Shown here: positions 29,947-64,000 of the stretch, in pieces | Layout of the letters: each line of letters starts with the position of its first letter | Numbering within the stretch: the first letter of the stretch is position 1 | DNA from: Polyangia bacterium | Lineage (GTDB): Bacteria; Myxococcota_A; Polyangia; Fen-1088 | Assembly: GCA_035549075.1 (NCBI GenBank) | Contig: DASZRT010000069.1 | Span: forward strand, 678 to 64,677 | Direction of reading: 5' to 3' | Length of the DNA stretch: 64,000 nt | Position numbers and translations under genes: made by a program | Notes under the pieces: model-generated | Databases searched by the model: none | What the model was told of the DNA's origin: nothing | What the model saw: only the letters and a program-made list of their open reading frames with translations

Positions 29947-32900
29947 TCAGCGGAACGTCACGCGGACGGTGTGGGTCGCGCCGTCGCCCAGGTCGACGCG
30001 CAGCTGGTACGCGCCGCGCGCGAGCGCGTGCGTGTCGAGCAGCAGATCATAGGTGCGGAGCAGCGGGATGAACACGAAGTTGTCGCCGAGGAACGGCGGC
30101 AGGGCGTGGGCCGGCTGCTCGGCGCCGACGTGGCCGGCGGCGTCGACGGGCGCGAGGAAGAGCTTCGCGGGGAAGTCGGCGATGCCGGCGCAGCCGCCCG
30201 CGAGCGTGAAGCGCACGAGCAACGGAAGCGGCCGGTAGAACACCGACGAGCCGTCCTCGTCGATCGGCTGCAGGAAGTGGCCGAACGAGACGAGGACGCG
30301 CACGAGGAACGAGCCCGTCGAGCGGTTGCCCGTCGCGTCCGTCGCCGCGCAATTCACCTTGGTGTCGCCGAGCGGGAATTGCGCGCCCGAGGCCGGCGCG
30401 CACGAGACGCTCGGGTGCGGGTCGGTGTCGTCGGTCGCCGTCACGTGGTACGTCACGCGCGCGCCGAGGCGGCTCGTCGCGGGCACGACGATCGTCGCCG
30501 GTAGGGAGAGCACGGGCGGCCGGTTGTCGGCGACCGAGACGACGAACGTCGCGGGCGCCGTCGTGTTGCCGTGGTGGTCGGTCGAGGTGCAAGTGACGAG
30601 AGTCGTGCCCACGGCGAAGAACGAGCCCGACGGGTGGTCGCACGTCACGGGGTCTGCGCCGTCGACGACGTCGCTCGCGCACGTGGCGAAACTCACGACG
30701 CTGCCGCCTGGGCTGCTCGCGAGCACGTGGACGTTGGTGAGCGGGCACAGCGTCGGCGGCGTCGTGTCGCGCACCGTGACGGGGAAGCTCGCTGACGTCG
30801 TCTGTCCCGCGGCGTCGGTGGCGGCGCACACGACCTCGGTCGTCGTGTCGAGCGCGAACAGCGCCGGCGACGCGGGCGCGCACTCGACGGGCAGCGGGCC
30901 CGTGACGACGTCGACGGCCGACGCCTCGTAGCTGACGACGGCGCCGAGCGCGCTCGTCGCCTCGGCCACGATGGGGCCGGGCACGGTGACGACGGGCGGG
31001 CCGTCGACGACGTCGACGCCGAAGAGACCGAGGCCGACGGCGCCCGTCCCGGGATCGATCGCCTCGCAGAGGACCGTCGATTGACCGATCGGGAAGGTCG
31101 CGCCCGAGGGCAGCCGGCACGACAGCGCCGCCGGCTTGTCGTCGATCGTCGTCGCCGACGCGTCGTACGTGACGGGCGCGCCGTCGGGGCTCGTCGCGTC
31201 GACGGTGATGGAGCCAGGCGTGTGCACCGTGGGCGCCTTCGAGGGATCGCCCTGCGTCACGCCGACGAGCGTCGGATCGGACTCGCAGCTCTCCGACCAG
31301 CCGCCCCCCGCGCGTGAGTCGAGCACCTGCGAGATGCGCAGCGGGTGCCACCCCGGCGGCACGTCGAGCGTCATGCTCCAGTCGCCGTTGGCGTCGGCGC
31401 GCGCCGTGAAGGTGCGCTGGCCGTCGCGAACGACGACGTCGGCGAACGGCTGCGCGCAGGACGGCGGCGGCGCCGCGACGACCGAGGCGCAGCCGGCGGC
31501 GCCGAACTTGATCGGCCCCACCTGCGTGATCACGCCGTTCGGCGCGATCGGCGGCAAGGGCAGGCTCGGCGGGCGCACGTCGATCTCGAGGCGGCTCGTG
31601 GGCGTGTTGGCGAGACTCGCGAAGGCGCGGAAGTGGGCGTCGATCTGATCCGGCGTCGAGCCCGCGGGCGGGTCGGGCGCCTGGAAGAAGTACACGAGGT
31701 GCTTGCCGGGTGGCAGCGAGACGCCGCCCTGGAACGAGAACGTGCCGTCGGGCTCGGGCGTGTCGTTCACGCCGAGATCGCGCGAGACGACGCGCAGGCC
31801 CACGTGGCCCGTCTCTTCGTAGATGCGCAGCGGCCCGAGCACGGCCTGCGCGTACGGCAGCGAGCCCGTGACGTGCACGAACTGCCCGTCGTTGCCGGCG
31901 GGCGTGCACGAAGGCTCGGCGCCCGAGCGTGGGAACGTCACGGTGGGCGGGCGGATGCCGACGCTCACGAACACCGGCGCGCTGCCGCCGGGCGAGCCGC
32001 ACGCGGCCTTCGAGAACACGAGCTTATGCCAGCCCTTGTTCGGGTCGGACGCCGACCCGGCCGACAGCGTGATGACGTCGTTGATCTTGCCCGTGCCGTC
32101 GGCGGTGACCGTGGGCGTGAGCGTTGCGCCGCCGCCGAGGTCGCACACGTTGACGACGCCGGGCGCCGCCGTGCCCGTGACGGCGAACGTGTCGTCGGCG
32201 GGGTTCGGGCTGGCCGTCGGGTCGCGCGGCGACGTGATGACGGGCGCGTCGGGAGTGGCGGGCGCCGCCGCGGTGACGACGACGGGCCAATCGATCGACG
32301 CGCTCACCCCGCAGAAGGGTGCGGGCGGCGCGACGCACGGATCGCTCGCGAACGTGCGCTGCGTGAACGAGAGCGTGTGGTTCCCGTACCCCGAGACCGG
32401 CACCGTGCCCGAGAACGTGCCGTCCGACGCGATCGACAGCACCGAGCCCGGCGCGCCGTCGACGAGCACCTGCACCGAGCCGCCGACGACGCCGCCGATG
32501 CCCGACACGGCGACCTGCGGCGCGACGCCATAGACGGTCGAGCCGTTGCGCGGCGACACGATCGCGGGCGGCGGCGGTGTGGCGCGCGTGCCGTCGTCCG
32601 GCGCCGCGAGCACGTCGACGACGGCGAGGCCGTTCGCGCCGACGGCGGGCGCGAGCGAGAGATCGGCCGTCGGTCCGGCGGCGAGCGGCGTGTCGAGGTC
32701 GGGCTTCGTACCGTTCGACTTGGTCGCGAACGAGACGACGTTGAGGCCGGCGCCAGCGTTCGCGGGCGTCGCGGGCGGGTACAGCGCCGACCACGGCACG
32801 ACCTGGCGGAGCTGGCTCGCGCTCGCCCACAGCAGCTGGGCCGTGCGATCGCTCGTGCTGTTCTGGATCTCGACGTGGATGGGGTAGTGCACGCCCGCCT

Positions 32901-35793
32901 GCAGCGCGATCGTGACGCTCTTGCGCTGCTGCGTCGTCGGGATCGGCACCGGCGTCGTGCACGTCTCGTGGCAGATCGTCTTGACCTCGGCGATGCACTT
33001 CGCGTCCCACTCGGGCTCGGTCGAGTAGTACGAGAGGTAGCCGCCGTCGCAGCAGAACGGATCCTGCGCGCAGATGGCGTCGACGCACGAGTCGCAGGCG
33101 TGGATGATGCCCGTGCTCGCGGCGAGCTTGGGCCCGAGCGCGCAGATGTCGTGGGGGCACGCGGGCGCGAGCGGCGCGCCCACGGCGACGGGCGGCAGCA
33201 GCGACGTGCTGCCCACGGTGAGCGCGGCGTCGCCCGCGGCCGTCACCGTGAAGGTGTACGTCTCCGAGTACGTGGGGACGATCTCGCCGTCCCACTTCGT
33301 CGAGTAGTTGGGCGTCGCGATGCCCGAGGGCAGCGTCGTCGTCGCCGAGAGATCGATGCCGGGATCGACGCGCGTCATGGGCGTGCCCGCGAACGCGAGG
33401 CCCGGGTAGTAGGTCGCGAGCAGGCCCGTGCCGCCGCCGGGGCCGACGCGGTAGAGCGCGCCCGACGGGATCGCCGACGGCGACAGCGCGCCCGGCGTCT
33501 GCCACGTGAGGCCGGGCGCCGTCGGATCCACGGGCGTCGTCGCCTGGAAGCGATCCCAGCGGATGTCGTATTTGATGCCCCGGACGAGATCGATGGTGCC
33601 GCTCGTCGGGCCCGGGCCGTCCCACCAGTCGACGAGCTTCTGGCCGTTCACGAAGACGCGGCTCGGCTCGACGCCCGCGGCGAAGGTGTACGTGCCCGTC
33701 GCGGGCGCTTCGATCCAACCCGTGAGCACCTGCGCGAACGCGCGGTCGTCGGCCGCGGCCGAAGCGCCGGTGGGCGTGCACGTTTCGGCGGCGGCGGCGC
33801 ACGCGTCGGTCCAGGCCGTCGTGCAGCAGCTGCCGAGGCCGCTCTTGGCGCAGACGCTGGCGGCGCACGCGCTGCACGAGGCGTCGAGCGCGTCGCCCAC
33901 GTCGTGCTCGCCGTGGGCGCACGTCGGCACGCGCACGATGCCGTTGCGCAGCAGCGTGGGCGGCGCCTCGGGGCCGTCGGCCGTCGCCGTGTCGAGCGCG
34001 TAGACGAACACGTCGCCGGACGTGCTCGCCGGCAGCGTGAACGAGAAGCCGTGGCGAGCCGTCGTGAGGCCCGCGCCGTCGCAGGCCGTCGCGACCTCGC
34101 CCGCGAGCGGCGCCGCGAGCGCGAGGTCGGCGTAGGTCGTGCCGACGAGCGTGCCGCCGTGCTCGCGCGGGCCCGTGTAGATCGCGACGGCGACGGCCGC
34201 GCCCGGCCACTCGGGATCGCACGCCCAGCCCGTCACCGTCGCCGAGGTGCCGCTCGTGCTGACGCCGTCGACGCGATCGACGGCGCCGCCCGGACCGATG
34301 AGGTACTTCTGCGGCGCGGGCGCCGGGCCCGTGACGTCGCGCGGCCATACGCGCCCCGGCTGCCACAGCGGCCCGCCGCCGTCGACGACGTCCTGGCAGA
34401 CGTGCTGCCGCTTGTCGACGCAGGCCGCGTTCCACACCGGCTGCGGCAACGTCGGATCGGCGCTGCAGCACTGGGGCATCTCGCGGCACACGGCCGTCGT
34501 GCACGGGCTGCAGTCCCACGGCAGCGCCTCGCCCGTCTGCGACTCGTCGTGCGTGCAGTAGTTGCCCGAGAAGATCTCGACGCGCGGCGTGTTCGTGAGC
34601 GGGTTCGCCCAGCGACCGTCCTCGAAGTGGTCGCGCTCGAGCCGGTCGATCGACGCGAAGCTGTCGCACGCGTTCTCGGGCGCGAGCTCGCGGTAGCGCG
34701 TGCGCTGCAGCGCCGTCGCGTGCAGCGTCGGATCCGACGCCAGCGGATCGAACGACACGAAGTATTCTTGCGCGAGCATCCACTGCGAGTCGGGCACGGC
34801 CGGGTTCCAGGGGTTCTGGATCGTGTTGGGCCAGATGAATTGTCGTGTGTCGAACAGATCGACCAGCGTGCCGTTCTTCGTGAAGCTCTGGCGGTCCTGG
34901 CAATATCCGGCGCGCGCCGCGATCTTGCAGACGTCGTAGAACGGCTTGAGCGGGAATTCCTTCTCGACCCAGCTCGACGAGGGATCGTCGTAGAACCACG
35001 TCGTGTCCGTGCGCCAAGGGCGGAAGCCCCAGATGCGCGCGCACTTCGCGGCGACGCCCGTCGCCGTGCACGCGAAGATGAACTTGTTGGGGTTGGCGGG
35101 ATCCTCGGCGATTGCCATCGCCGTCGCGCCGCCCGTCGCGTCGTGGTACGGGCACAGCGACGCCCACTGGCCGCTCCACTTGTAATAGAAGTAGACCTCG
35201 TACAGCTGCACGTCGTCGTTGATCTGGTCCGCGGGGCGGTGCAGGAGGTTCGGCACGGGATCGGCCTCTTCGCCCGCGATGTAGAGGTCGAGATCGTCGG
35301 CGGGGTTTCCGGCCGCGTCGACGAGGTGAGCCGTCGCGTAGTGGCCCACGGCCGTCTCGCCGCCCACCGAGATGTAGCTGCCCGCGCCCGTGCTCATGCC
35401 CGGGTTCGCCGTCAGCTCGACGGGAACGACGCCCGAGTCCGACGTCAGCCCCCTGATTTCGACCGAGCCGATGTCGACGCCTTTGAGGCTGCTTCCGACG
35501 ACGTCCGTTCCCAAGACGGGAACGCCTTGAACGAGCGAGCCCTGGACCGAGAGCCCCTGAACCGAGAGGCCTTGAACGGACAGTCCCTGGACGGAAAGTC
35601 CCTGGACCGAGAGTCCCTGGACCGAGAGGCCTTGGACGGACAGTCCCTGGACGGAAAGTCCCTGGACCGAGAGTCCCTGGACCGAGAGTCCCTGGACGGA
35701 CAAGCCGGCGATCGCGGCGCTCGGAGCCGCGATCAACAACACCACCAACCACGTCGCGGGCCGTTTGCCCCTCGTCCAAGAAGGTCTTTTCAT
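29947..35793 (-). CDS. giant secreted surface protein: signal peptide, 12x GLSVQ pentapeptide repeats, Cys-rich domain, PA14-like domains, multiple C-terminal HYR (hyalin repeat) domains
   Basis: ATG at 35793 with a GGAG RBS. Signal MKRPSWTRGKRPATWLVVLLIAAPSAAIA. Repeats (GLSVQ)x12. PA14-like segment YTFAAGVEPSRVFVNGQKLVDWWDGPGPTSGTIDLVRGIKYDIRWDRFQ. HYR-like blocks, e.g. PPVVTVPGPIVAEATSALGAVVSYEASAVD...CAPASPALFALDTTTEVVCAATDAAGQTTSASFPVTV, repeated about 5-6 times. Confidence 0.8.
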   Translation of the reverse strand: MKRPSWTRGKRPATWLVVLLIAAPSAAIAGLSVQGLSVQGLSVQGLSVQGLSVQGLSVQGLSVQGLSVQGLSVQGLSVQGLSVQGSLVQGVPVLGTDVVGSSLKGVDIGSVEIRGLTSDSGVVPVELTANPGMSTGAGSYISVGGETAVGHYATAHLVDAAGNPADDLDLYIAGEEADPVPNLLHRPADQINDDVQLYEVYFYYKWSGQWASLCPYHDATGGATAMAIAEDPANPNKFIFACTATGVAAKCARIWGFRPWRTDTTWFYDDPSSSWVEKEFPLKPFYDVCKIAARAGYCQDRQSFTKNGTLVDLFDTRQFIWPNTIQNPWNPAVPDSQWMLAQEYFVSFDPLASDPTLHATALQRTRYRELAPENACDSFASIDRLERDHFEDGRWANPLTNTPRVEIFSGNYCTHDESQTGEALPWDCSPCTTAVCREMPQCCSADPTLPQPVWNAACVDKRQHVCQDVVDGGGPLWQPGRVWPRDVTGPAPAPQKYLIGPGGAVDRVDGVSTSGTSATVTGWACDPEWPGAAVAVAIYTGPREHGGTLVGTTYADLALAAPLAGEVATACDGAGLTTARHGFSFTLPASTSGDVFVYALDTATADGPEAPPTLLRNGIVRVPTCAHGEHDVGDALDASCSACAASVCAKSGLGSCCTTAWTDACAAAAETCTPTGASAAADDRAFAQVLTGWIEAPATGTYTFAAGVEPSRVFVNGQKLVDWWDGPGPTSGTIDLVRGIKYDIRWDRFQATTPVDPTAPGLTWQTPGALSPSAIPSGALYRVGPGGGTGLLATYYPGLAFAGTPMTRVDPGIDLSATTTLPSGIATPNYSTKWDGEIVPTYSETYTFTVTAAGDAALTVGSTSLLPPVAVGAPLAPACPHDICALGPKLAASTGIIHACDSCVDAICAQDPFCCDGGYLSYYSTEPEWDAKCIAEVKTICHETCTTPVPIPTTQQRKSVTIALQAGVHYPIHVEIQNSTSDRTAQLLWASASQLRQVVPWSALYPPATPANAGAGLNVVSFATKSNGTKPDLDTPLAAGPTADLSLAPAVGANGLAVVDVLAAPDDGTRATPPPPAIVSPRNGSTVYGVAPQVAVSGIGGVVGGSVQVLVDGAPGSVLSIASDGTFSGTVPVSGYGNHTLSFTQRTFASDPCVAPPAPFCGVSASIDWPVVVTAAAPATPDAPVITSPRDPTASPNPADDTFAVTGTAAPGVVNVCDLGGGATLTPTVTADGTGKINDVITLSAGSASDPNKGWHKLVFSKAACGSPGGSAPVFVSVGIRPPTVTFPRSGAEPSCTPAGNDGQFVHVTGSLPYAQAVLGPLRIYEETGHVGLRVVSRDLGVNDTPEPDGTFSFQGGVSLPPGKHLVYFFQAPDPPAGSTPDQIDAHFRAFASLANTPTSRLEIDVRPPSLPLPPIAPNGVITQVGPIKFGAAGCASVVAAPPPSCAQPFADVVVRDGQRTFTARADANGDWSMTLDVPPGWHPLRISQVLDSRAGGGWSESCESDPTLVGVTQGDPSKAPTVHTPGSITVDATSPDGAPVTYDASATTIDDKPAALSCRLPSGATFPIGQSTVLCEAIDPGTGAVGLGLFGVDVVDGPPVVTVPGPIVAEATSALGAVVSYEASAVDVVTGPLPVECAPASPALFALDTTTEVVCAATDAAGQTTSASFPVTVRDTTPPTLCPLTNVHVLASSPGGSVVSFATCASDVVDGADPVTCDHPSGSFFAVGTTLVTCTSTDHHGNTTAPATFVVSVADNRPPVLSLPATIVVPATSRLGARVTYHVTATDDTDPHPSVSCAPASGAQFPLGDTKVNCAATDATGNRSTGSFLVRVLVSFGHFLQPIDEDGSSVFYRPLPLLVRFTLAGGCAGIADFPAKLFLAPVDAAGHVGAEQPAHALPPFLGDNFVFIPLLRTYDLLLDTHALARGAYQLRVDLGDGATHTVRVTFR
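35523..35706 (-). repeat. 12 tandem 15-bp repeats encoding (GLSVQ)n at the mature N-terminus of the giant surface protein
   Basis: Visible periodicity ...gagagtccctggaccgagaggccttggacggacagtccctggacggaaagtccctggacc... Codon wobble positions vary but the peptide unit is conserved. Confidence 0.85.
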
Positions 35794-38423
35794 TTTTCTT
35801 CTCCAGCGGTCGCGCACACGCGAACACCCGTCGTCGAGTCTCGAAGCGTCCTGGTCACCGGCTCGCGATTCGTGCTCCTCGCCGAGACCGAATTGAAGTA
35901 GTAAGCGCCACCTCGGATCACGAATTCGCCCCGAGTTTGCGACGACACGGCGAACTCGAGGACGTTGCCGGCCAAGTCGTCGATCCCAAAAGGACTTCGC
36001 GAGCCCGGGTGAGATCCGACGGCGTCAGGTCCGTAGGCGGACTCGACGCGGCCGTACGAGATGTCGAAGTTGGCGTCGTCGGGGGCGATCTCGTCGCCGT
36101 TCGGAAAGAGCCGATCATCGGCGCCGCGCGCCGCGCGCTCCCATTCGACCTCGTCGCACAGCCGTGCGCCGGGAACCCTGCCGGACGAGCGCAGCCACGC
36201 CAAGTACTCTTCGACGTCGGCGAGGGAAACGCCTGCCACTGGAAACTGCAGCCAGTTCTGCTTCGCCAAGCGCTGACGGCCGACGTAGACGAACGGTTGG
36301 CCCGACCTGACAGCATATCTGTGGGACGCCGTGCCGAGACTGAATTGCCAGCCGTCGCCGACCTGGCGAAGCGTCACCGACCCGTGCGTGGTCGCCGCAC
36401 CGTCGGGCAAGTGACGTCCACGGTCATTCGGCGGCAATGCCTCGAGGAACGCGATCCACTCCCGGTAGGTCGTCTCTGTACGCGCGATCAGAAACGCTGG
36501 CACATGCCTTCGATGGATCGGTACCGTTCCGAGGAACTCCGTGCGGAGTTGCTCGTCCGCGTCGCCGAACCACGATTCTCCAGCAGGTACGTAGACCATT
36601 CCTTCGGGAACGATCCGCGCTGTTGGCAGCACGACGTCGACGGTCTGGTGAGCGGGGTCGCCGCGCCTCAGCTCGAAGGGAACGATCAAATCCGCGAACC
36701 CCGTGGCGCGTGCGACGACGCGGTACGAACCGGCCTCGAGGTTCAGCGTGGTCGTCGGCGGTGCGAACCCGGGCACGGGCGCCCACAATCCACGTGGCGC
36801 CGCTTGGTCGCGGTAATGACGTTCGAGAGAGAGAGTCGTCGACGGCGGAGAAACGTGCAGCCCCACCGTGAACGGCTCGGAGAGCCGTTGCTTCCACGTC
36901 CCTCCGGCGTCAGTCGAAACGAGCTTGGCGCTCGCTGTCTTGATCTCGTCCGTGAGATGCAGGTCCTGCGTGAGCGCCAGTTTGTCGGCAAGGACCTCGA
37001 GCAGGCGCGAGCGGGCGATTTCGCGGCTCGGATCGAGGACGAGCGCTGCCTCGAAGGCCTGCGTGGCGGCGTCAAATGAGCCAAGGATCGGCGGCACCAT
37101 CGCGCGTGCCGCTTTCCAGAGGGCCTCGCCCTCGTCGCGATCCATCGCATCGAACGCCGCGAAGGCGCGCGTCCTCATCGCTTTCAGGTCGTCGACCTTC
37201 TTGGCCGTCGATTGCGCTTCCGAGTTTCCTCTCTCGATCTGCTCGGCGACGCTGCGTTCGACGTCTTCGTGGCGCCTGCGCGCCGCGTGCAGGACGGCGA
37301 GCGTTGCTCCCACGAGCACGAGCGTGACCGCACCAATCGTGGTTCGCCGTCGTCGCGCGACGGCTGGGTCGTCCTCGAGCGCCGAGATGAGCGCGGCCAT
37401 CGATGGGTGACGAGCCTGGCGATCGGTCTGAAGCCCGCGCAAGACGACGCGGCGAATCCAACCGGGGACGTCGCGCTCCTTCGGCAGCGCGCGAAGGTGA
37501 CCGTTCGTCACGCTCACGGAGAGCGCGACGAGCGTGTCGCCGTCGAAGGGTCGTTGGCCGTAGAGCGCCTCGTACAGAGCGACGCAAAAGCTGAACTGGT
37601 CCGTGCGCTCGTCGGTGGGCTCGCCCAAGAACTGTTCGGGCGCCATGTAAGCCGGCGTGCCCATGAGCGCGCCCGTGCGTGTGAGCTTGTCCAGCTTGTC
37701 CGACGAGCTCAGATCGACGTTCGTCGGCAAGTTCGGGTCGAAGCGAGGCGGCGGGTGCGAGTCGGAGGCTGCGTCGTTCGCGGGCACGGCTCCATCGACA
37801 TCGGAGACCGCGCGTTCGAGCGCGCCGGCGCTCTCGAGCTCGATCTTGACCGCCTCGACGTTGCGCGCGAGGCCGAAGTCGACGACGCGTGCACGCCCGT
37901 CCTTGTCGAGCAGCACGTTGTCGGGCTTGAAGTCGCGGTGAACGAGCCCCTCGGCGTGCGCTGCCGCGAGCCCGCGCCCCGCCGCCGCGAAGACGGCCAC
38001 AACCTCGCGCCACGAACGCGTCGCTGATTCGAGCCAAACGCGGAGCGTGCCGCCCGCTAGAAATTCTGTCGCCAGGAAGACGCGATCATCGTCGGTCACG
38101 CCGACGTCGTGCACGGCGGCGACGTTCGGATGAGACAACCGCGCCATGGCCTTCGCTTCGCGCATCATTCGCGCTCTTGCGAGGGGCGCCGCGCCCGCAC
38201 CGACGCCGCGCAGAATCTTGAGAGCGATCTTGCGATCGAGCTCGGGATCATAAGCGCCGTAGACGACGCCCATCGCCCCGGTCCCTACGCGCTCGAGGAT
38301 GACGTAGCGGCTGACGCGAGCGCCAATCGCAAGGTCGGGCTCGTGCTTTTCGACGGAGCCTTCGGCTCGGTTTCCCCGCACTCTTTCCCCCGGGAGCGGC
38401 GGAGTTGGTTTCTTCGTAGTCAA
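35790..38423 (-). CDS. Ser/Thr protein kinase fused to C-terminal FGE-sulfatase (formylglycine-generating enzyme-like) domain
   Basis: Kinase motifs GTGAMGVVYGAYD, HRDFKPDNVLL, DFGLAR and APEQ. C-terminal FGE-like motifs (GNVLEFAV...IRGGAYY, VRVCA). The stop codon overlaps the ATG of the giant adhesin gene (ATGA at 35790-35793). Confidence 0.85.
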   Translation of the reverse strand: MTTKKPTPPLPGERVRGNRAEGSVEKHEPDLAIGARVSRYVILERVGTGAMGVVYGAYDPELDRKIALKILRGVGAGAAPLARARMMREAKAMARLSHPNVAAVHDVGVTDDDRVFLATEFLAGGTLRVWLESATRSWREVVAVFAAAGRGLAAAHAEGLVHRDFKPDNVLLDKDGRARVVDFGLARNVEAVKIELESAGALERAVSDVDGAVPANDAASDSHPPPRFDPNLPTNVDLSSSDKLDKLTRTGALMGTPAYMAPEQFLGEPTDERTDQFSFCVALYEALYGQRPFDGDTLVALSVSVTNGHLRALPKERDVPGWIRRVVLRGLQTDRQARHPSMAALISALEDDPAVARRRRTTIGAVTLVLVGATLAVLHAARRRHEDVERSVAEQIERGNSEAQSTAKKVDDLKAMRTRAFAAFDAMDRDEGEALWKAARAMVPPILGSFDAATQAFEAALVLDPSREIARSRLLEVLADKLALTQDLHLTDEIKTASAKLVSTDAGGTWKQRLSEPFTVGLHVSPPSTTLSLERHYRDQAAPRGLWAPVPGFAPPTTTLNLEAGSYRVVARATGFADLIVPFELRRGDPAHQTVDVVLPTARIVPEGMVYVPAGESWFGDADEQLRTEFLGTVPIHRRHVPAFLIARTETTYREWIAFLEALPPNDRGRHLPDGAATTHGSVTLRQVGDGWQFSLGTASHRYAVRSGQPFVYVGRQRLAKQNWLQFPVAGVSLADVEEYLAWLRSSGRVPGARLCDEVEWERAARGADDRLFPNGDEIAPDDANFDISYGRVESAYGPDAVGSHPGSRSPFGIDDLAGNVLEFAVSSQTRGEFVIRGGAYYFNSVSARSTNREPVTRTLRDSTTGVRVCATAGEEK

Positions 38424-56957: not shown

Positions 56958-57464
56958 ATGCATCCAGCGATGGTGAATTGGTGGCGTGCGCGCCAAATGA
57001 GCGGCGGCGGCGGTGAAGCGAGCTGCGGGCCGCGTGGTTGGGGGCACGGACCCGGTCCGGGCCCGGGCGACGAGGGGGGCTTTCAGGGTGGTGGCGGCGG
57101 CGGTGACGACGGCTTCGGCGGCGGCGCCTTCGGCGTGCGGCGTCCGTTGCGGTTCCTCGCGTACAAGCTAGAGCTCGACGAGCGTCAGGTCGGCGAGCTC
57201 GCGCGTGTCTTGGACGAGCTCAAGACCGAGCGCGCCCAGGCCGCCGTCGACAGCCGGCGCTCGTTGACGGCGTTCGCGGACGCCATCGGCGGCGCGGCCT
57301 TCGACGAGGCCCGCGCCAAAGAGGCGGGCGGCCTGCGCGTCGCGACGGCCGAACGCTTGCGTGACGCCGTCACGAAGGCCCTCGGCCGCATCCACGCGCT
57401 GCTCGACGACGACCAGCGCGAGCGCCTCGCGTACCTGATCCGCACCGGTACGTTGGCGATCTGA
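56958..57464 (+). CDS. periplasmic Spy/CpxP-like (LTxxQ motif) stress protein with Gly-rich N-terminal region
   Basis: LELDERQVGELARVLDELKTERAQ and LLDDDQRERLAYLIR resemble LTxxQ repeats. Immediately upstream of htrA. Confidence 0.45.
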   Translation: MHPAMVNWWRARQMSGGGGEASCGPRGWGHGPGPGPGDEGGFQGGGGGGDDGFGGGAFGVRRPLRFLAYKLELDERQVGELARVLDELKTERAQAAVDSRRSLTAFADAIGGAAFDEARAKEAGGLRVATAERLRDAVTKALGRIHALLDDDQRERLAYLIRTGTLAI

Positions 57465-57522
57465 AAAATCGGCGGGGAGGGCCTTCGGGCTCTCCCCGCC
57501 TTTCGTTTCGAGAGGGAAGACC

Positions 57523-58539
57523 ATGATCAACGCGGCACGTGTGCCCATGGAAGATTCGCAGTTGCTCGACGCGTACTCGCAGACGGTGACGTCGGTCGCC
57601 GAGCAGGTGAGCGGCGCCGTCGTGAAGATCGAGGTGCGCGGCGCGCCGCTCGATCCGCGCGACCCGCGCGCCAAAGGTCAGCGGCGCAGCCCCGGCGGTC
57701 CGCCCGGACAAGAGCCCGGCGGCAGCGGCTCCGGCTTCGTCGTGACGCCCGACGGCTACGTCCTCACGAACAGCCACGTCGTCAGCGGCGCCAAGCGCAT
57801 CAGCGTCGTGTTCCAAGGCGGCGAGCGCGAGTCGGCGAGCCTCGTCGGCGACGACCCGGCAACCGACCTCGCCGTCGTGCGCGTCGACGGCTCGCACCTG
57901 CCGACGCTCTCGTTCGCGAGCTCGTCGGACCTGCGTGTCGGCCAGATCGCCATCGCCGTCGGCAACCCGTACGGCTTCGATTGCACCGTCACCGCCGGCG
58001 TCGTGAGCGCGCTCGGCCGTTCGTTGCGCACGCAATCTGGCCACCTCGTCGACGACGTCATTCAAACCGACGCCGCCCTCAACCCCGGCAACTCGGGCGG
58101 CCCGCTCGTCGACGCCCGCGGCCAGGTCATCGGCGTCAACACGGCGATGATCATGCCCGCGCAAGGCATCTGCTTCGCCATCGCCAGCAACACCGCGAGC
58201 TTCGTCATGAGCAAGCTCATCCACGAGGGCCGCATCCGCCGCGCCTACCTCGGCGTCGCCGGCCAGAACGTCCCGCTGCACCGGCGCGTCGTTCGTTTCC
58301 ACGGCCTGCCCAACGAGAGCGGCGTCTTCGTCGTCTCGACCGAGCCCGACAGCCCCGCCGCCCGCGCCGACCTCCGCGACGGCGACCTCATCGTCGCCTA
58401 CGGCGACAAGCCCGTCGCCGGCATTGACGATCTCCACAAGCTGCTCACCGAAGAGCAAGCCGGCGTCGGCTCGACGATGACCATCATCCGCAACCTCGAG
58501 AAGAAAACGCTGACCGTGGAACCGACGTTGCGTCGGTAA
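57523..58539 (+). CDS. HtrA/DegP-family trypsin-like serine protease with one PDZ domain
   Basis: GSGFVVTPDGYVLTNSHVV (His), DLAVVRV (Asp), GNSGGPLVD (Ser) and a C-terminal PDZ (GVFVVSTEPDSPAARADLRDGDLIVAYGDKPV). Confidence 0.85.
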   Translation: MINAARVPMEDSQLLDAYSQTVTSVAEQVSGAVVKIEVRGAPLDPRDPRAKGQRRSPGGPPGQEPGGSGSGFVVTPDGYVLTNSHVVSGAKRISVVFQGGERESASLVGDDPATDLAVVRVDGSHLPTLSFASSSDLRVGQIAIAVGNPYGFDCTVTAGVVSALGRSLRTQSGHLVDDVIQTDAALNPGNSGGPLVDARGQVIGVNTAMIMPAQGICFAIASNTASFVMSKLIHEGRIRRAYLGVAGQNVPLHRRVVRFHGLPNESGVFVVSTEPDSPAARADLRDGDLIVAYGDKPVAGIDDLHKLLTEEQAGVGSTMTIIRNLEKKTLTVEPTLRR

Positions 58540-58569: not shown

Positions 58570-58608
58570 GGCCCCGGTGCGACGAACGGTCGCACCGGGG
58601 CCGTTTTT
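58570..58608 (+). terminator. rho-independent terminator downstream of htrA
   Basis: Perfect 14-bp stem GGCCCCGGTGCGAC / GTCGCACCGGGGCC with loop GAACG followed by GTTTTTC. Confidence 0.8.
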
Positions 58609-61600
58609 CAGCGTCGCCACGGCGACGGCCCTCGGCGCCGACGCGACGCCGTCGGCGACCTTGCCCGCGATCTCGTGGACCGCGGCGCCTCCCACCGGTC
58701 CGTCGCTCGCGACGCAGGGCTGGATCGGCGCGCCCGCGCACCAGGCCACGGTCACGGGCCTCGTTCCGATCACGGTGGCGGCCGGCACGACGCTGACAGC
58801 GGGGACGTTGACCTACTGGCCGATGGCTTCGCCCGATCAGGTGCACACGCTCTCGACGACCGTCACCGGCGGCCCAGGCGCGACGCTCGCGACGCTCGAC
58901 ACGACGACGCTGTCGAACGGCTCGTGGGTCATCCAGCTCGACGCGACCGACGACGGCGGCCACCAGCAGGTGAGCTCCGTCGCCGTCACCGTCAGCGGTG
59001 ACTACAAGCCCGGCCGCGTCGTCGTCGAGGTCACCGACCTGACCATCCCGGTCACGGGCATCCCCATCACGGTGGGTCGTCGCTACGACAGCCTCGAGAA
59101 AGACAACGTCGGCGACTTCGGCCACGGTTGGTCGCTGACCCTCGGCCACCCGAAGCTCGAGGTCGACCCCGCCCACAACGTGACGATCACGATGCCCGAC
59201 AACCGGCGCGTGACGTTCTACTTCCAAGCGTCGTCGGTGACCCCGAGCATCACGTTCGCGTGGCTCTACGGTCCGGGCTACGTCCCCGAGGCGGGCACGT
59301 TCGGGACGCTCACCGCAGATGGATGTCCGCTCATGGTCGTGTCGGGTGGGCAGCTCGTCTGCTCGAAGAAAGCTCGCTCGAGTACGCGCCGACGACCTAC
59401 ACGTACACCGATCCGTACGGCCGCGTGTTCACGATGGCAGCGACGGGCGAGCTCAAGTCGATCAAAGATCGCCAGCAAAACACGCTGACGTTCTCGCCTT
59501 CGGGCATCACGAGCAGCGCCGGTGTCAGCGTCACGTTCGAGCGCGACGGCAACGGCCGCATCACGAAGGTGACGAGCCCGCTCGTCGACGCGACCACGGG
59601 TTCCGTGGTCTACACCTACGAGTACGACGCCAACGGCGACCTCACCAAGGTCAACTTACCCGACGACGGCAACGGCCCCGGCCACATCGACTACGCGTAC
59701 GCCGATCATCGGTTGCTCACGACAAAGGACCCGAACGGCCATTTCGCACGAACGTCAACCTACGACGGCGACGGCCGCCTGCAGACCGACGCCGACGCCG
59801 TCGGCAACGCGACCTCGTACGCCTACGACCTGACGGCGCACACGACGACCATCACCAACCCAGACGACGGCGTCGTCACCCAGACGTTCGACGATCGCGG
59901 TCTGCTGACGAAAGAGGTCGATCCGCTCGGTCGTACGACCCAGCACACCTACGACGACAACCGGAACGAGCTCACCCGCACGAACGCCCTCAACGAGGTC
60001 ACCACGATGACCTACGACGGCAGCGGCAATCAAACATCGATCCAGAACGGTCGCGGTGAGACGACCCACATCACGTACAACTCGTTCTCCGAGCCGCTCA
60101 CGAGCACCGACCCGGCGGGCCACACGACGACGATCGGCTACGACTCGTCGGGCATCCCGACGAAGTTCAGCGATGAGGTTGGAACTCTCGCGACCTTCAC
60201 GTCGTCCGACCACGGGTTGCCGCTGACGGTGACCGACGTCGCCGGAAACACGGCGTACCTGACGTACGACGCGGTCGGCAATCTGACCGCGCGAACCGAC
60301 CGCCTCTCGCGCGTCACCAAGAGCAGCTACGACGGCACGGGCCGACTCTCGACGAGCACCGACGCACGCGGCGGCGTGACGAGCTACTTCTACTCGCTGC
60401 GCGGCCTTCGATCGCGAATGACAGACGCTTCAGGCCTCATCGGCCACCAGGCGTACGTCTACGGGTATGACCAGAACGGCAACCTGACGAGCGAGACGTC
60501 CGACGAGGGCCGTACGACGACATACGCTTTCGACGCGATCAACCACCTGACGCAGGTCCAGCACCCTGACCTCACGACGACCGGTTACACGCGTGACTTC
60601 CGCGGCAACCCGCTGACCACGACGGACGAGATCGGCCGGCTGACGACGTACGAGTACGACAAAGCCGGCCAGCTCACCAAGACGACGTTCCCCGACGGGA
60701 CGTTCACCACGCGCGCCTACGACGACCTCGGTCGCCCGCAGACCGCGACCGACGAGCGCGGCAACGCCACCACGTACGAGTACGAAACCGGCTGCGGCTG
60801 CGCCGAGCGGGTGACAAAGGTGACCGACCCGCTCGGCCACGCGACGACGACCACGTACGACGCCGTCGGTCGCCGCGCGACCGTCATCGACGCGAACGAC
60901 CACACGACCAGCTACGGTTACGATACCCGTGGTCATCTGACGACGACGACCTATGCCGACGCGACGAGCGAGAGCGACGGCTACGACACCCGCGGGCGCC
61001 GCACGAGCCACACCGATCAGATGGGTTCGGTCACCCAGTACGGTTACGACGCCGAAGGCCAGCTGACGTCGGTGACTGATGCCCTGAACCACGTCACGAG
61101 CTACACCTACGACGGCAACGGCAACCTAACGACTGTCACCGACGCCAACAGCCATACGACGAGCTACGGCTACGATGCACTGAACCGAAAATCGTCTCGT
61201 ACGCTGCCTCTCGGCATGACCGAGACATTCGCCTACAACATGTACGGCGACCAGACCGGTCATACGGACTTCAAGGGCAAGACGACCACGATGACCTACG
61301 ACGGTCTGAGCCGCTTGCTCACAAAGGTCCCAGACGCGGCTCTCAGCGAACCGACCATCACGTTCGGCTACAACCTGACCGGCACGCGCGCTTCGATGGC
61401 CGACGCCAGCGGCACGACGACCTACGCCTACGACCAGCGCGACCGCCTCAAGACCAAAGCGACGCCAGCCGGGACTTTGACGTACACTTACGACCCGGCG
61501 GGAAACGTGGCGTCGATCAAGTCGTCGAACGCGAACGGAACGGACGTGGCGTACAGCTGGGACGCCGCGAACGAGCTCGTCACCGTCACAGACAACCGGG

Positions 61601-63018
61601 CGGGCGGCGTGACGACGTCGGCGTATACCGCCACCGGACGGCCGAGCGGGTTGACACAGCCGAGCGGCGTGGGAGCGACGTACAGCTACGACTTGCGAGA
61701 TCGGGTGACGTCGCTTGAGTGGGCTCACAGTACGAACCCCGCGTTCGGAAGCTGGTCGTATGGATTCAACGGCCGAGGCCAGCGAACGAGCGTCACCGAC
61801 GCCACCGGCCGGCACGTCGCATACGGATACGACGCGGTCTCGCGTCTCGTCAGCGAGACCATTGCGGCCGACCCGCGCGGAGCGATCGGCAACGGCGAGA
61901 TCGACTATTCGCTAGATCCGACAGGCAATCGTCTGTCGCGGACATCCACGCTCGCGGCCGTCGGCGGGCAGACGTTCACCTACGACTCCAACGACCAACT
62001 CGGCAGCGACACCTACGACCTAAACGGCAACACGACAGCCTCGGACGGCCACGCGTTCGCGTACGACTTCGAAAACCGTCTGAAGTCAAAGGACGCGGGC
62101 GCCGTGACGATCGTCTACGACGGCGACGGGAACCGAGTTGCAAAGACCGCGGGAGGCGTCACGACGAAGTATCTGATCGACGACGTAAATCCGACGGGCT
62201 ACCTGCAAGTTCTTGAAGAGGTGAGAGGTGGATCGGTACAGACCGAGTACACGTACGGTACGATGCTTGTGAGCCAGAACCGGGCGGTCGGAGGGGCCAG
62301 TCAGACGAGTTACTACGGCTACGATGCCCACGGAAACGTCACGTTTCTGACGGACGCTGCGGGCGCGGTGACGGACACGTACGACTACGACGCATGGGGG
62401 AGCGTGGTCGGACAGTCCGAGACGACGCCGAACACACGGCTGTTTGATGGGGAGGAAGTGGATCCGGACCTCGGGCTCGTCAATCTGCGGGCACGGCTGT
62501 ACAAGCCGATCACGGGGCGGTTCTTGACGATTGATCCGCTGGATGGAGTTGCCGGCTCCTTCGTGGTTGCAGGTACAGCAGGGGATGTTTCACGAGAAGC
62601 CGCAACTACCTCGCCCTTCGTCAATGCAGTTCTGGATCTCACTCCGCGTGACGTAGTCGGGCCCCGCGTTCGCGGACAGCGCTATCTTTTCGCTGCCGGT
62701 GATCCTGTATCGAAGTTCGACCCGACGGGATTGAGCGAGGCCACGGCTGATGCGTTCTTCGAATTCGCGATAAGCCGTCCTCTCGTGACGGTCGCCTTCG
62801 TCGGGTCGGCAGCGGTGACAGCCGGTGGCATCGTGGTGTTGGCCAGTAAGATCAAGGAGAGGATCTGCGAGAACGGGTACCAGACTGATTTGGCAACGTG
62901 CAGGGAGCTTCCCGATCCTGCGGCCCGCGCTCGATGCTACGCCTCAGCCCTGGATCGAAAGAACGCTTGCTTGAAGGATCAGCCGCTGCCGCCATTGCAG
63001 GGATGGCCCGGATGGTGA
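58577..63018 (+). pseudogene. RHS/YD-repeat family toxin with C-terminal variable toxin domain; reading frame interrupted (frameshift near 59350-59365); true N-terminal start unresolved
   Basis: More than 40 YD repeats (e.g. GNATSYAYDLTAHTTTITNPDDGVVTQTFDDRGLL). RHS core ending ARLYKPITGRFLTIDPLDGVAG (the DPxGL-type boundary), then a ~150 aa unique tail ending ...LPPLQGWPGW. The frame of 58577-59488 joins the frame of 59128-63018 only via a 1-nt shift at ...tcgaagaaagctcg. The annotated ORF start lies inside the htrA terminator and so is not real. Confidence 0.6.
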
Positions 63019-63530
63019 GGCGCAAGCGAGGGGGCGTGCGCATCTCGAGGGCTAGAGCGGGCGTAGAGGGAGGCTGGTTTTGCGATGTGTCGTCAAGTGA
63101 CTCGCGGGTACCCAGCGGGAGGATCTTCGGTGAGGACAAAGGACAAGCTTTGCAGCTTGCGGCTCGGTACGTGTCGTCAATGACTACCGGCGATGAGGAC
63201 GCCGCCGCTGCGGTGGACGTGGACAAATCACGGGGCCGGACGGGAGTCGTTGCGTCCCTCGTCCCGACAAAGGATGGGTTTCGCTTAATTCTGGACGATG
63301 TGGAAGCAGTCGAAATGGAGGGATCAATGACCTGGCGGTCAGTTCGACTTTTCAGCCATCGCGACTTCGTTGAGACCAGACCTGCCAAGGTGACAAAGGA
63401 AGAACTCGCTTCCGTCGGCGGCATGCTGCTTGCTCGCCTTCGTGCGCTGGAGATCACCAAGGCAGCCGGACATGGAAGTAGCCCGCAGAACCCGAGATCG
63501 AAAGTAACGAAATCCAAGCGTGAGGTGTAA
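63001..63530 (+). CDS. candidate RHS immunity protein (start uncertain; alternative ATG about 63181)
   Basis: ORF immediately overlapping or following the RHS toxin tip. GC is lower (AT-rich codons such as ttt cgc tta att ctg) than the host background, typical of toxin-tip/immunity cassettes. No recognisable motifs. Confidence 0.3.
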
Positions 63531-63629: not shown

Positions 63630-64000
63630 ATGAGCAAGACATTCCGGCCGTACTCACCTGGCCAGGCCTTTCTTCTGCCGCCGTCACCGCTGGACTGGCT
63701 GCCGGAGGACCACCTCGCGCGCTTCATCATGGATGTGGTGAAGAAGCTGGATCTGGCGGTGGTGTACCAGCGATACGAAGGCGACCTGCGCGGGTACCCG
63801 CCTTACCACCCGCAAATGATGGTGGCGCTGCTGCTGTACGGGTACTGCGTCGGCGTGCCGTCATCGTGGAAGATCGAGAAGAAGACCCACGAGGACATCG
63901 CGTTCCGTGTCATCGCCGGTGGCGCGCAGCCTGACCACTCGTCGGTCTCGGAGTTTCGTCGTGTTCACCCTCACGAAAGCGTCCTCGGCGTGGTGCTGAA
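63630..64000 (+). mobile_element. IS1182/IS5-superfamily transposase, N-terminal part (truncated by window end)
   Basis: ATG at 63630. MSKTFRPYSPGQAFLLPPSPLDWLPEDHLARFIMDVVKKLDL...GYPPYHPQMMVALLLYGYCVGVPSSWKIEKKTHEDIAFRVIAGGAQPDHSSVSEFRR is the transposase InsH-type N-terminal domain. The frame is open to the window end. Confidence 0.7.

Follow-up and report, generated by a model that had tools for sequence, protein, structure and literature searches.

On sequence grounds, the 64,000-nucleotide stretch of DNA analysed here (the window), from a Polyangia (Myxococcota) metagenome-assembled genome, contains a toxin-immunity cassette that is genuine and whose tip family has not been described before. 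We consider it probable that the locus consists of one Rhs/YD polymorphic-toxin gene and its cognate immunity gene, with the tip being a small, non-enzymatic, membrane-associated toxin. The cassette has possibly been inactivated in this genome. The features of the locus are compiled in Table 1.

Table 1. Features of the Rhs locus and its flank, with positions in the window
Feature	Position	Strand	Basis or remark
Rhs/YD gene overall	58577-63018	+	Single frameshift near 59362
Rhs N-terminal part (frame 2)	58577..59362	+	DUF6531; possible Sec signal peptide; weak PKD/Ig-like stretch
Frameshift site, frame 2 to frame 1, 1-nt-deletion type	59340..59375	+	Junction ~59362; ORF overlap, GC3 switch
Rhs/YD-repeat shell and C-terminal core (frame 1)	59362..62733	+	RHS_repeat, TIGR03696; end motif DPTGL
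Insertion of ~38-40 aa inside the core-end motif, between DPLD and RYLFAAGDPVSKFDPTGL	62545..62673	+	Core-end alignment
DPVSKFDPTGL, canonical PxxxxDPxGL Rhs core end, presumed autoproteolysis site	62701..62733	+	Translation, alignment with canonical Rhs ends
C-terminal tip, putative toxin, 94 aa plus stop	62734..63018	+	Follows DPTGL
Hydrophobic segment PLVTVAFVGSAAVTAGGIVVLA, 22 residues, within the tip	62779..62844	+	Kyte-Doolittle
Four-cysteine helix-loop-helix module, C-x10-C-x11-C-x10-C then QPLPPLQGWPGW	62866..63015	+	Conserved family signature
Candidate immunity gene, 172 aa plus stop	63012..63530	+	ATG overlaps Rhs stop (ATGGTGA)
N-domain of immunity candidate, residues 3-59, short divergent DUF6968-like	63018..63188	+	Pfam, hhalign
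C-domain of immunity candidate, residues 74-159, 'family 2' domain	63231..63488	+	BLASTP, leave-one-out profiles
IS1182-family transposase gene, 5' part, runs off the window	63630..64000	+	NF033551, DUF772

The Rhs gene and its frameshift

Two overlapping plus-strand ORFs, 58577-59488 (frame 2) and 59128-63018 (frame 1), make up the Rhs gene, in line with the initial annotation, which had described a frameshifted Rhs polymorphic toxin locus. The first ORF harbors a DUF6531 domain (Pfam; E 6e-10), while the second contains 17 stretches of RHS_repeat (PF05593; E 4.7e-101) and two stretches of the Rhs-associated core TIGR03696 (E 1.8e-12; 47.6 bits against a cut-off of 32.5). With regard to the N-terminal part, a K319L-like_PKD match stayed under the Pfam cut-off (E 0.001), and a possible Sec signal peptide (MRRTVAPGPFFSVATATALGADA) was recognised by eye; as for the secretion route, the N-terminus looks to be of the Sec type. 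Domain search gave no PAAR match in this part, none of the 10 large neighbouring genes examined in the window encoded a T6SS component, and the window genes that were examined included no PAAR, VgrG or secretion-system gene.

A frame running uninterrupted from the N-terminal domain to the tip was not found, the reading passing from frame 2 to frame 1 at ~59362. The sequence at this junction (...GTCTGCTCGAAGAAAGC...) can be read as GGQLVC / LEESSLEY, and high GC3 leaves frame 2 for frame 1 in the interval 59250-59400; the change fits a 1-nt deletion. The frameshift may leave the Rhs gene inactive in this genome. In its fullest form, this reading would make the locus a decaying relic, in which the Rhs gene is a frameshift pseudogene and an IS1182 element landed beside the cassette, with no functional product except, perhaps, the immunity protein retained as an orphan defence. 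We regard such a relic as a serious possibility, if somewhat short of even chances, and it is compatible with the main explanation. In addition to the shift itself, it is suggested by the lack of a canonical slippery heptamer at the site (as judged by eye) and by the transposase, whose ATG (63630) lies 99 bp downstream of the candidate immunity ORF. Furthermore, no Rhs protein from this genome is present in the protein database searched, which does hold the product of the neighbouring ORF (P0002, 100% identical, the public annotation of its residues 57-172), suggesting that the public annotation calls the Rhs gene a pseudogene. On the other hand, there is one shift only, and the two halves are otherwise open over 0.8 and 3.65 kb with a strong codon bias (GC3 0.85-0.91, the upper value being that of the frame 2 part), so that any inactivation would be recent, or the shift would be an assembly error in this metagenome-assembled genome. 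Besides, translation of a separate shell protein might in principle begin at an in-frame ATG (59323).

The transposase itself, which had been placed about 100 bp past the ORF and assigned to the IS1182 family, matched NF033551 (E 4.6e-31; model positions 2-114) and DUF772 (9.5e-14, above its cut-off). The NF033551 score, 108 bits, is under the full-length cut-off of 270 because the protein is cut by the window end, with only 123 aa inside. Neither IS ends nor a target duplication were seen in the window, which includes the first 371 bp of the transposase gene.

The core boundary, the tip and its family

It had been proposed that the core ends at DPLDG and is followed by a toxin domain of ~150 aa. 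Alignment with canonical Rhs ends revised both points: DPLD (62533-62544) is the first aspartate motif of the core end, the core itself ends at DPTGL (62733), 63 residues after the proposed boundary, and the tip therefore comprises 94 aa (62734-63015). The insertion that separates the two parts of this motif is common only to the proteins P0003 and P0005. In characterised Rhs proteins the toxin sits after PxxxxDPxGL, and autoproteolytic cleavage at DPTGL is presumed here from established knowledge of Rhs/Tc proteins.

In the window, overall GC was 0.694, with background genes reaching a GC3 of 0.9-0.97. The low-GC 3' part noted in the initial annotation is real in so far as GC3 drops to 0.62-0.72 across ~62400-63530, compared to 0.85 in the Rhs body, but the drop begins at ~62400-62450, inside the core, and not at the toxin boundary. 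Similarly, the downstream ORF had been described as poorer in GC than its background and as starting at the toxin end, and both held (GC 0.595, GC3 0.64; start codon overlapping the Rhs stop).

AlphaFold2, run on the tip with an input alignment of two sequences, gave helices at residues 29-55 and 61-79 with a pLDDT of 87-91 over ~40 residues, and the four-cysteine module is thus predicted to be an antiparallel two-helix hairpin. Confidence was below 50 over the hydrophobic segment, which reached a top 19-residue Kyte-Doolittle mean of 2.11 and contained no glycine-zipper motif (small-xxx-small / GxxxG). No entry in Pfam, NCBIfam or PDB covers the module, and the tail accordingly does not correspond to a known non-toxic module; such a correspondence would have spoken against a toxin. 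The 'novel toxin fold' suggested earlier is not claimable, as the confident part is a plain two-helix hairpin, a common shape, with which Foldseek retrieved no significant match.

The tip was also held to be unique. A word search of 5.8 billion proteins returned P0003 as its sole relative (36-40% identity, same core insertion, same tail); an exhaustive profile search, however, yielded 148 proteins at E<=1e-3, nearly all covering profile positions 44-95 at the protein C-terminus. With a family of ~146 related protein clusters, uniqueness had to be abandoned. Sequences outside the building set of the profile were recovered at E values down to 1.8e-15. The family module has ~50 aa, lies at the extreme C-terminus with the pattern C-x10-C...C-x10-C...PLPPLxTW, and is usually preceded by a hydrophobic stretch, its carriers being mostly Rhs proteins. 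The four-cysteine pattern was present in 137 family proteins, 123 of which end <=16 residues past the fourth cysteine, and an Rhs core motif was found upstream in 59 (median linker, 64 aa); 34 of these 59 have a strongly hydrophobic 19-mer. Invariant columns in the family alignment are C3, D10, C14, C26, R33, C37 and P45, and the window module can be aligned over its whole length (C, D, C, C, R, C, PLPPL). By contrast, the region around the hairpin varies: P0030 has a proline-rich linker instead of the hydrophobic segment, and in a few members, P0043, P0055, P0081 and P0149 among them, a hydrophobic or proline-rich extension was seen by eye after the hairpin, not before. Glycine-zipper enrichment across the family was modest with respect to shuffled linkers (31 vs 25.5 and 28 vs 19.6). 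Judged by these sequence comparisons, the hairpin module defines a widespread, unannotated tip family found mostly on Rhs proteins, which is unnamed in domain databases and in the searchable literature. Members come from Myxococcota, Nitrospirota and Acidobacteriota.

The candidate immunity gene and its counterparts

The ORF that follows the tip likely encodes its antidote, as suggested by gene order and by conservation in other genomes. Neither a signal peptide nor a transmembrane segment was found in the candidate protein, for which the AlphaFold2 model was poor (pLDDT 47). A lack of conservation in other genomes, which would have spoken against the pairing, was not seen: P0001 is 73% identical to the ORF product, with conservation from residue 1, its gene having the same 7-nt overlap with the upstream gene, and both domains of the protein reappear elsewhere, immediately 3' of homologous tips.

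With respect to the N-domain, Pfam DUF6968 (PF22302) missed its threshold on the window ORF (14.4 bits against a gathering threshold of 27; E 0.035) and did not match P0001. With three sequences, the ORF-type N-domains aligned to DUF6968 by hhalign with a probability of 41%, which rose to 94.7% (E 6.3e-8; 62 columns) when the neighbours from loci L013 and L015 were added. Window residues 3-59 align to DUF6968 positions 19-82, and of the 90 profile positions only ~17-81 are matched. In particular, the two have the aromatic-aromatic-Cys strand and the G-x-D-x-x-Q-A-x-Q-L-A helix in common, whereas the window protein lacks the first strand and, at the C-terminal end, the W-x-G-D-x-x-G-x-L-G-F hairpin, and a second domain of ~85 aa stands in place of the C-terminal strand pair. 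This C-domain is also encoded directly 3' of the hairpin tips in L003 and L013 (BLASTP 1e-9 to the L003 neighbour; leave-one-out profile scores of 35.9 bits for L003 and 26.9 bits for L013). From these alignments, the window protein joins a divergent DUF6968-like domain to a second one, which likewise accompanies hairpin tips.

At nine of 12 evaluable tip loci, the next gene encodes DUF6968 or a DUF6968-like protein, the exceptions being L003, L004 and L012. DUF6968 was found directly downstream of the tip in L002/L005 (3.5e-23) and in L006, L008/L009 and L010/L011 (1e-18 to 1e-19), as well as downstream in the P0048 and P0005 contigs; L015 encodes a short DUF6968-like protein at this position, and the L013 neighbour combines the two domains in the way that the window ORF does. 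An overlap of the start codon with the preceding stop codon is seen not only in the window but also in L001 and the P0001 contig. Furthermore, several tip loci are arrays of orphan Rhs-tip/small-ORF cassettes, which is a classic toxin-immunity layout. It is conserved synteny alone that pairs the variable tip with a cognate immunity gene.

Within the framework of Zhang et al. (2012, PMC3482391), the closest known systems are Rhs/YD polymorphic toxins whose core closes with PxxxxDPxGL and whose gene is followed by one for immunity, such as the E. coli and Dickeya Rhs proteins, Bacillus WapA and P. aeruginosa Tse5. The window locus resembles them in its RHS repeats, DUF6531, Rhs-associated core, variable tip after DPxGL, overlapping small downstream ORF, lower-GC 3' cassette and relatives in orphan tip/immunity arrays; it differs in a core-end motif split by a ~40-aa insertion, in the frameshift, and in that no PAAR, VgrG or T6SS genes were seen.

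Possible modes of action

The mode of action that we favour, and infer from the tip's features, is that of a small, non-enzymatic, membrane-associated toxin. Autoproteolysis of the shell after DPTGL would release the tip, in which the four cysteines, the Asp of helix 1 and the Arg of helix 2 would line up between the helices as a ladder made of two cysteine pairs and a salt bridge; the invariant residues, as parts of this ladder, would therefore be structural and not catalytic. At the inner membrane of the target, the hydrophobic segment would insert, with the rigid hairpin anchoring or oligomerising it, and the soluble immunity protein would sequester the toxin on the cytoplasmic side. Support for membrane action is weak: many family members have the hydrophobic segment, but not all. 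Immunity proteins of known membrane toxins are usually membrane proteins, while DUF6968, like the product of the window ORF, is soluble and without a signal peptide. Also against a membrane model, the window segment has no glycine zipper and enrichment in the family is modest, and two inter-helix disulfides would need an oxidising compartment, which is awkward with a cytoplasmic immunity protein. A precedent for soluble immunity that neutralises a membrane-depolarising toxin is EsxX with ExiAB of Staphylococcus aureus, likewise a small, hydrophobic toxin at the C-terminus of a polymorphic carrier, paired with soluble cytoplasmic immunity, the likeness being a functional analogy only (PMC12744356). 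The LXG/T7SS substrate EsxX has a glycine zipper, unlike the window tip, which lacks the zipper and adds the four-cysteine hairpin; the window linker thus falls outside the motif definition of the glycine-zipper membrane toxins (EsxX, Tse5-CT, CdzC/D).

In an unlikely alternative, the hairpin would inhibit a cytoplasmic target stoichiometrically, with the hydrophobic stretch serving merely for inner-membrane crossing and the soluble immunity protein masking the binding surface of the hairpin in the cytoplasm. All immunity candidates are soluble and devoid of signal peptides, as this would predict, and it is the hairpin that is conserved, not the hydrophobic linker, which some members lack. Glycine-zipper segments can serve translocation and not toxicity, as described for one such hydrophobic segment in Agrobacterium Tde1 (PMC10240207). 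However, the disulfides suggested by the two inter-helix cysteine pairs would be lost in the cytoplasm, the extensions past the hairpin in a few members suggest action next to a membrane, and no target can be proposed. That the tip is a structural or anchoring appendage adjacent by chance to an unrelated ORF is very improbable: its very small size, lack of a catalytic motif and lack of a match to known toxin families would agree with this, but it occupies the toxin position of characterised Rhs proteins, recurs across phyla and in orphan arrays with small ORFs of one or two families, and shows the start/stop overlap at three loci.

With regard to shape, the tip recalls cysteine-stabilised helix-loop-helix mini-proteins such as twin CX9C CHCH domains, plant alpha-hairpinins and scorpion kappa-toxins, which also have two antiparallel helices with two cysteines each, about three turns apart, a geometry that would permit two inter-helix disulfides. 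The tip spacing is CX10C, and the likeness is one of shape, not of demonstrated homology; the best alpha-hairpinin match to the tip model (Foldseek, 2nb2) was not significant (E 9.1).

Rhs toxin-immunity cassettes are well known and the system itself is ordinary; what is new is a sizeable cross-phylum family of ~50-aa cysteine-braced tip modules, not listed where Zhang et al. (2012, PMC3482391) treat non-catalytic toxins, together with a testable role for DUF6968, a domain of unknown function, as partner of this family. A second partner domain, and the fusion of both, suggest how immunity specificity diversifies. Characterised Rhs tips are mostly enzymes. If a very small tip that is probably not catalytic were paired with a soluble antidote, this would widen the known range of Rhs action and offer a compact scaffold for study. 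More tentatively, and with chances well below even, the hairpin may represent a new class of non-enzymatic, disulfide-braced Rhs mini-toxins with a membrane or channel target in several phyla, with DUF6968 as dedicated soluble immunity and the window protein as a fusion of two alternative immunity modules; if so, bacteria would have an equivalent of the plant and scorpion cysteine-stabilised helical hairpin toxins.

The Rhs gene and its core end

From its sequence, the whole system appears to be a standard Rhs toxin–immunity cassette. It differs from the standard cassette in that the core-end motif is split, the tip family is absent from Pfam, NCBIfam and PDB, this family is paired with DUF6968 and the immunity protein would have two domains. 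The locus is a good and cheap lead for experiments rather than a surprise.

Coordinates of the Rhs locus and of further features in the window
Feature	Position	Strand	Remarks
1,956-aa protein	29947-35817	-	PA14, HYR, ADYC and GLEYA-like domains
LTXXQ (CpxP/Spy-like) protein and HtrA/DegP-type protease with PDZ	56958-58539		directly upstream of Rhs
Rhs ORF 1	58577-59488	+ (frame 2)	DUF6531 (6e-10); weak PKD-like stretch
Rhs ORF 2	59128-63018	+ (frame 1)	17 RHS_repeat stretches (4.7e-101)
Core-end insertion, ~40 aa	62545-62673	+	splits conserved motif between its two aspartate-containing halves
Tip	62734-63015		putative toxin
Hairpin	62866-63015		four-Cys helix-loop-helix module
Antisense ORF, 221 aa	62852-63517	-	almost complete overlap with immunity candidate
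Candidate immunity ORF	63012-63530	+	starts inside ATGGTGA, overlapping Rhs stop
IS1182-family transposase gene	from 63630, past window end		no IS end located

The two overlapping Rhs ORFs together span 58577-63018 on the plus strand. With high third-position GC (GC3) taken as the mark of the real frame in this 69% GC genome, the coding frame changed from 2 to 1 within 59250-59400, and the readable protein joined ...GGQLVC to LEESSLEY... at ~59362. This fits a single-base deletion, either a true mutation or an assembly error, in one gene of ~1,480 codons; by eye, no canonical slippery heptamer was present at the site. The repeats of the repaired Rhs protein and of P0030, the only full-length relative, are too diverged for any BLASTP alignment to have crossed the frameshift. 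An ATG at 59323, in-frame with frame 1 and shortly before the frameshift, could in principle be the start of a separate shell protein without the N-terminal domain. By eye, the N-terminus of the Rhs protein resembles a Sec signal peptide with an Ig-like region after it, and is similar to that of P0030, which carries a clear signal peptide. A database of 5.8 billion proteins contained P0002 ('Polyangia bacterium', same genome), 100% identical to the product of the candidate immunity ORF, but no match to the Rhs product of this genome, which suggests that public annotation handled the Rhs gene as a pseudogene. This copy may be dead, independently of the question of mechanism.

The initial annotation had placed the core/tip boundary at DPLDG, followed by a C-terminal domain of ~150 aa. 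Both values changed once the protein end had been aligned with canonical Rhs ends. The first aspartate motif is GRFLTIDPLD; the canonical core end, RYLFAAGDPVSKFDPTGL, lies further downstream, so that the tip begins at 62734 and comprises 94 aa. An insertion of ~38-40 aa lies directly after GRFLTIDPLD, inside the Rhs core end, and the NCBIfam Rhs-associated core model matched the window protein in two separate stretches. The split motif is presumed to be part of an aspartyl autoprotease. Three sequences only were found with this insertion, namely the window protein and its relatives P0003 and P0005. Upstream of the core-end motif, the P0003 shell is ~70% identical to that of the window (by eye), whereas the tails share only 32-40% identity. 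GC3 fell within the core, from ~62400-62450 onwards: it was 0.85 in the Rhs body, 0.62 at the core end, 0.72 in the tip and still 0.64 in the ORF that follows, against 0.9-0.97 in background genes.

A family of four-cysteine hairpin tips

The tip matched nothing in Pfam or NCBIfam, and a word-seeded search with the 94 aa as sole query was equally empty; a longer query retrieved one relative, P0003. A profile built from these two tails was then used for an exhaustive search of 1.84 billion cluster representatives. Here, 148 proteins were recovered at E<=1e-3, nearly all of them aligned at profile positions 44-95 and at their extreme C-terminus, and the tip, formerly described as unique, thus proved to have abundant relatives. 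Two of these matches were evident false positives (P0091 and P0004, the latter a eukaryote-like repeat protein). The pattern C-x(9-11)-C...C-x(9-11)-C was present in 137 of the matches, with no more than 16 residues after the fourth cysteine in 123 of these. An Rhs core motif preceded the hairpin in 59 members (median linker, 64 aa), 34 of which carried a strongly hydrophobic 19-mer in the linker. Invariant across the family, whose consensus was DECEKQYEEDIATCRALAGPAARARCYASAAERYAACLAGRPLPPLVTW(NN), were all four Cys, an Asp in the first half, an Arg in the second and a Pro. No Pfam model covered the hairpin in the ten members checked, and a PDB profile search with the module was empty.

AlphaFold2, run with a two-sequence alignment, predicted two helices in the tip (residues 29-55 and 61-79; pLDDT 87-91), with the hydrophobic N-part below pLDDT 50. 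The best match of this model in a Foldseek search of the PDB was no better than E 1.8, which is not significant. The i/i+11 spacing would place both cysteines of each helix on one face, and an antiparallel hairpin with this spacing would form two Cys-Cys pairs with an Asp-Arg pair between them.

The family alignment comprised a short-loop subtype ending in PLPPL(I/V)TW and a long-loop subtype (CRGISRxRGxAA) ending in PPLDTWNN; the window tip is short-looped and ends in QGWPGW. In a minority of members (P0043, P0050, P0055, P0073, P0081, P0122 and P0149) the hairpin is non-terminal: a proline-rich stretch and a hydrophobic segment come after it, as though a putative membrane anchor had moved to the opposite side. 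The module is also not confined to Rhs proteins, since it occurs, by eye, on P0072, with two peptidoglycan-binding-like repeats, and on P0031, a protein of unknown type with a signal peptide.

The candidate immunity gene and its counterparts

The only close homologue of the candidate immunity protein, P0001, shares 73% identity and is conserved from residue 1. Its gene overlaps a cut upstream gene of 575 aa by 7 nt, as in the window, and DUF6531/RHS fragments and a DUF4265 gene come next; the 575-aa gene is presumed to encode an Rhs protein with a hairpin tip. With the window ORF as query, contigs from metagenomes and genomes gave no match. For a locus scan with the hairpin, a 42-sequence alignment was too diverse and a 7-sequence version was used instead; this yielded three genome and four metagenome loci, one of which (L007) was a false positive.

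The 3' gene encoded a full DUF6968 protein at L002/L005 (Nitrospiraceae; 3.5e-23), L006 (Acidobacteriota), L008/L009 and L010/L011 and, according to precomputed assignments, a DUF6968 protein on the P0048 and P0005 contigs. At L015 it encoded a short DUF6968-like protein of 87 aa, at L013 a 177-aa protein aligning end-to-end with the window ORF, and at L003 a protein with only the C-domain in common (BLASTP 1e-9). The 3' genes of L004 and L012 were placed in neither immunity family, and those of L001 and L014 were cut by the contig end, that of L014 being assigned to neither family. Each of the two domains of the window ORF recurs 3' of hairpin tips in other genomes and tracks such tips there. 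Across these few loci, full DUF6968 partners occurred with short-loop tips; long-loop tips, like the short-loop tip of the window, had second-domain or short DUF6968-like partners.

The link to DUF6968 was weak with the DUF6968 profile alone and needed bridging sequences. The window ORF scored 14.4 bits against the Pfam model (sub-threshold) and went undetected by a four-sequence DUF6968 profile (2-4 bits). In profile-profile comparison, the N-domain matched DUF6968 with a probability of 41% with three sequences, and of 94.7% (E 6.3e-8) when the alignment also included the L013 and L015 proteins. Leave-one-out profiles of the shared C-domain scored L003 at 35.9 bits and L013 at 26.9 bits. These matches argue for a protein of two domains, a short DUF6968-like one (residues 3-59) and a second one (residues 74-159). 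For the immunity candidate, AlphaFold2 gave no usable model (pLDDT 47), and Foldseek and PDB sequence/profile searches with DUF6968 and the ORF family gave nothing significant. By eye, all partner proteins are without signal peptide or transmembrane segment. The antisense ORF is probably spurious, given that the plus-strand frame is the one favoured by all homologues and by the public annotation.

Downstream of the hairpin-tip/DUF6968 pairs at L006 (4520-5788), L009 (3528-5546) and L010 (3469-5068) come further orphan C-terminal fragments of Rhs genes, which bear other tips and have small ORFs as partners; these are classic displaced-cassette arrays. At L013, on a 4.77-Mb contig, the hairpin-tip Rhs gene is directly preceded by another Rhs gene (1-2101), which ends in a different tip and has a partner of 224 aa.

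Proposed action of the tip and genomic surroundings

Rhs architecture, core/tip boundary, tip family and partner synteny are established at the sequence level. By analogy with established Rhs biology, the shell would encapsulate the tip and autoproteolysis would occur after DPTGL. The invariant hairpin residues look structural, the domain seems too small for an enzyme, and the hairpin usually lies beside a hydrophobic stretch (in a few members, by eye, a hydrophobic or proline-rich extension follows it instead). On these grounds we favour a small, non-catalytic, membrane-associated toxin, which the immunity protein would neutralise by sequestration. EsxX/ExiAB offers a precedent, in that a soluble immunity protein can neutralise a membrane-depolarising toxin (PMC12744356). 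The main rival holds that the tip is a cytoplasmic inhibitor and its hydrophobic segment a translocation aid, for which Tde1 (PMC10240207) provides a comparison. The soluble immunity protein and the putative disulfides seem to point to different compartments. A glycine zipper was rejected for the window tip, whose hydrophobic segment has no such motif; across the family, these motifs are modestly enriched.

Searchable text yielded no literature on DUF6968 or PF22302, or on the tip family, which is likewise missing from the section on non-catalytic toxins in Zhang et al. 2012 (PMC3482391). The text on nine 'PT' domains (10.1101/2021.10.19.465003), with one of which the tip might coincide, does not mention cysteine.

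The IS, the Rhs gene and the candidate immunity ORF each occur only once in the window. Ten large genes across it encode proteins of housekeeping or surface type, and none of the ten is a T6SS component. The LTXXQ protein and the HtrA/DegP-type protease look like an envelope-stress pair, and the 1,956-aa protein is probably a surface adhesin.
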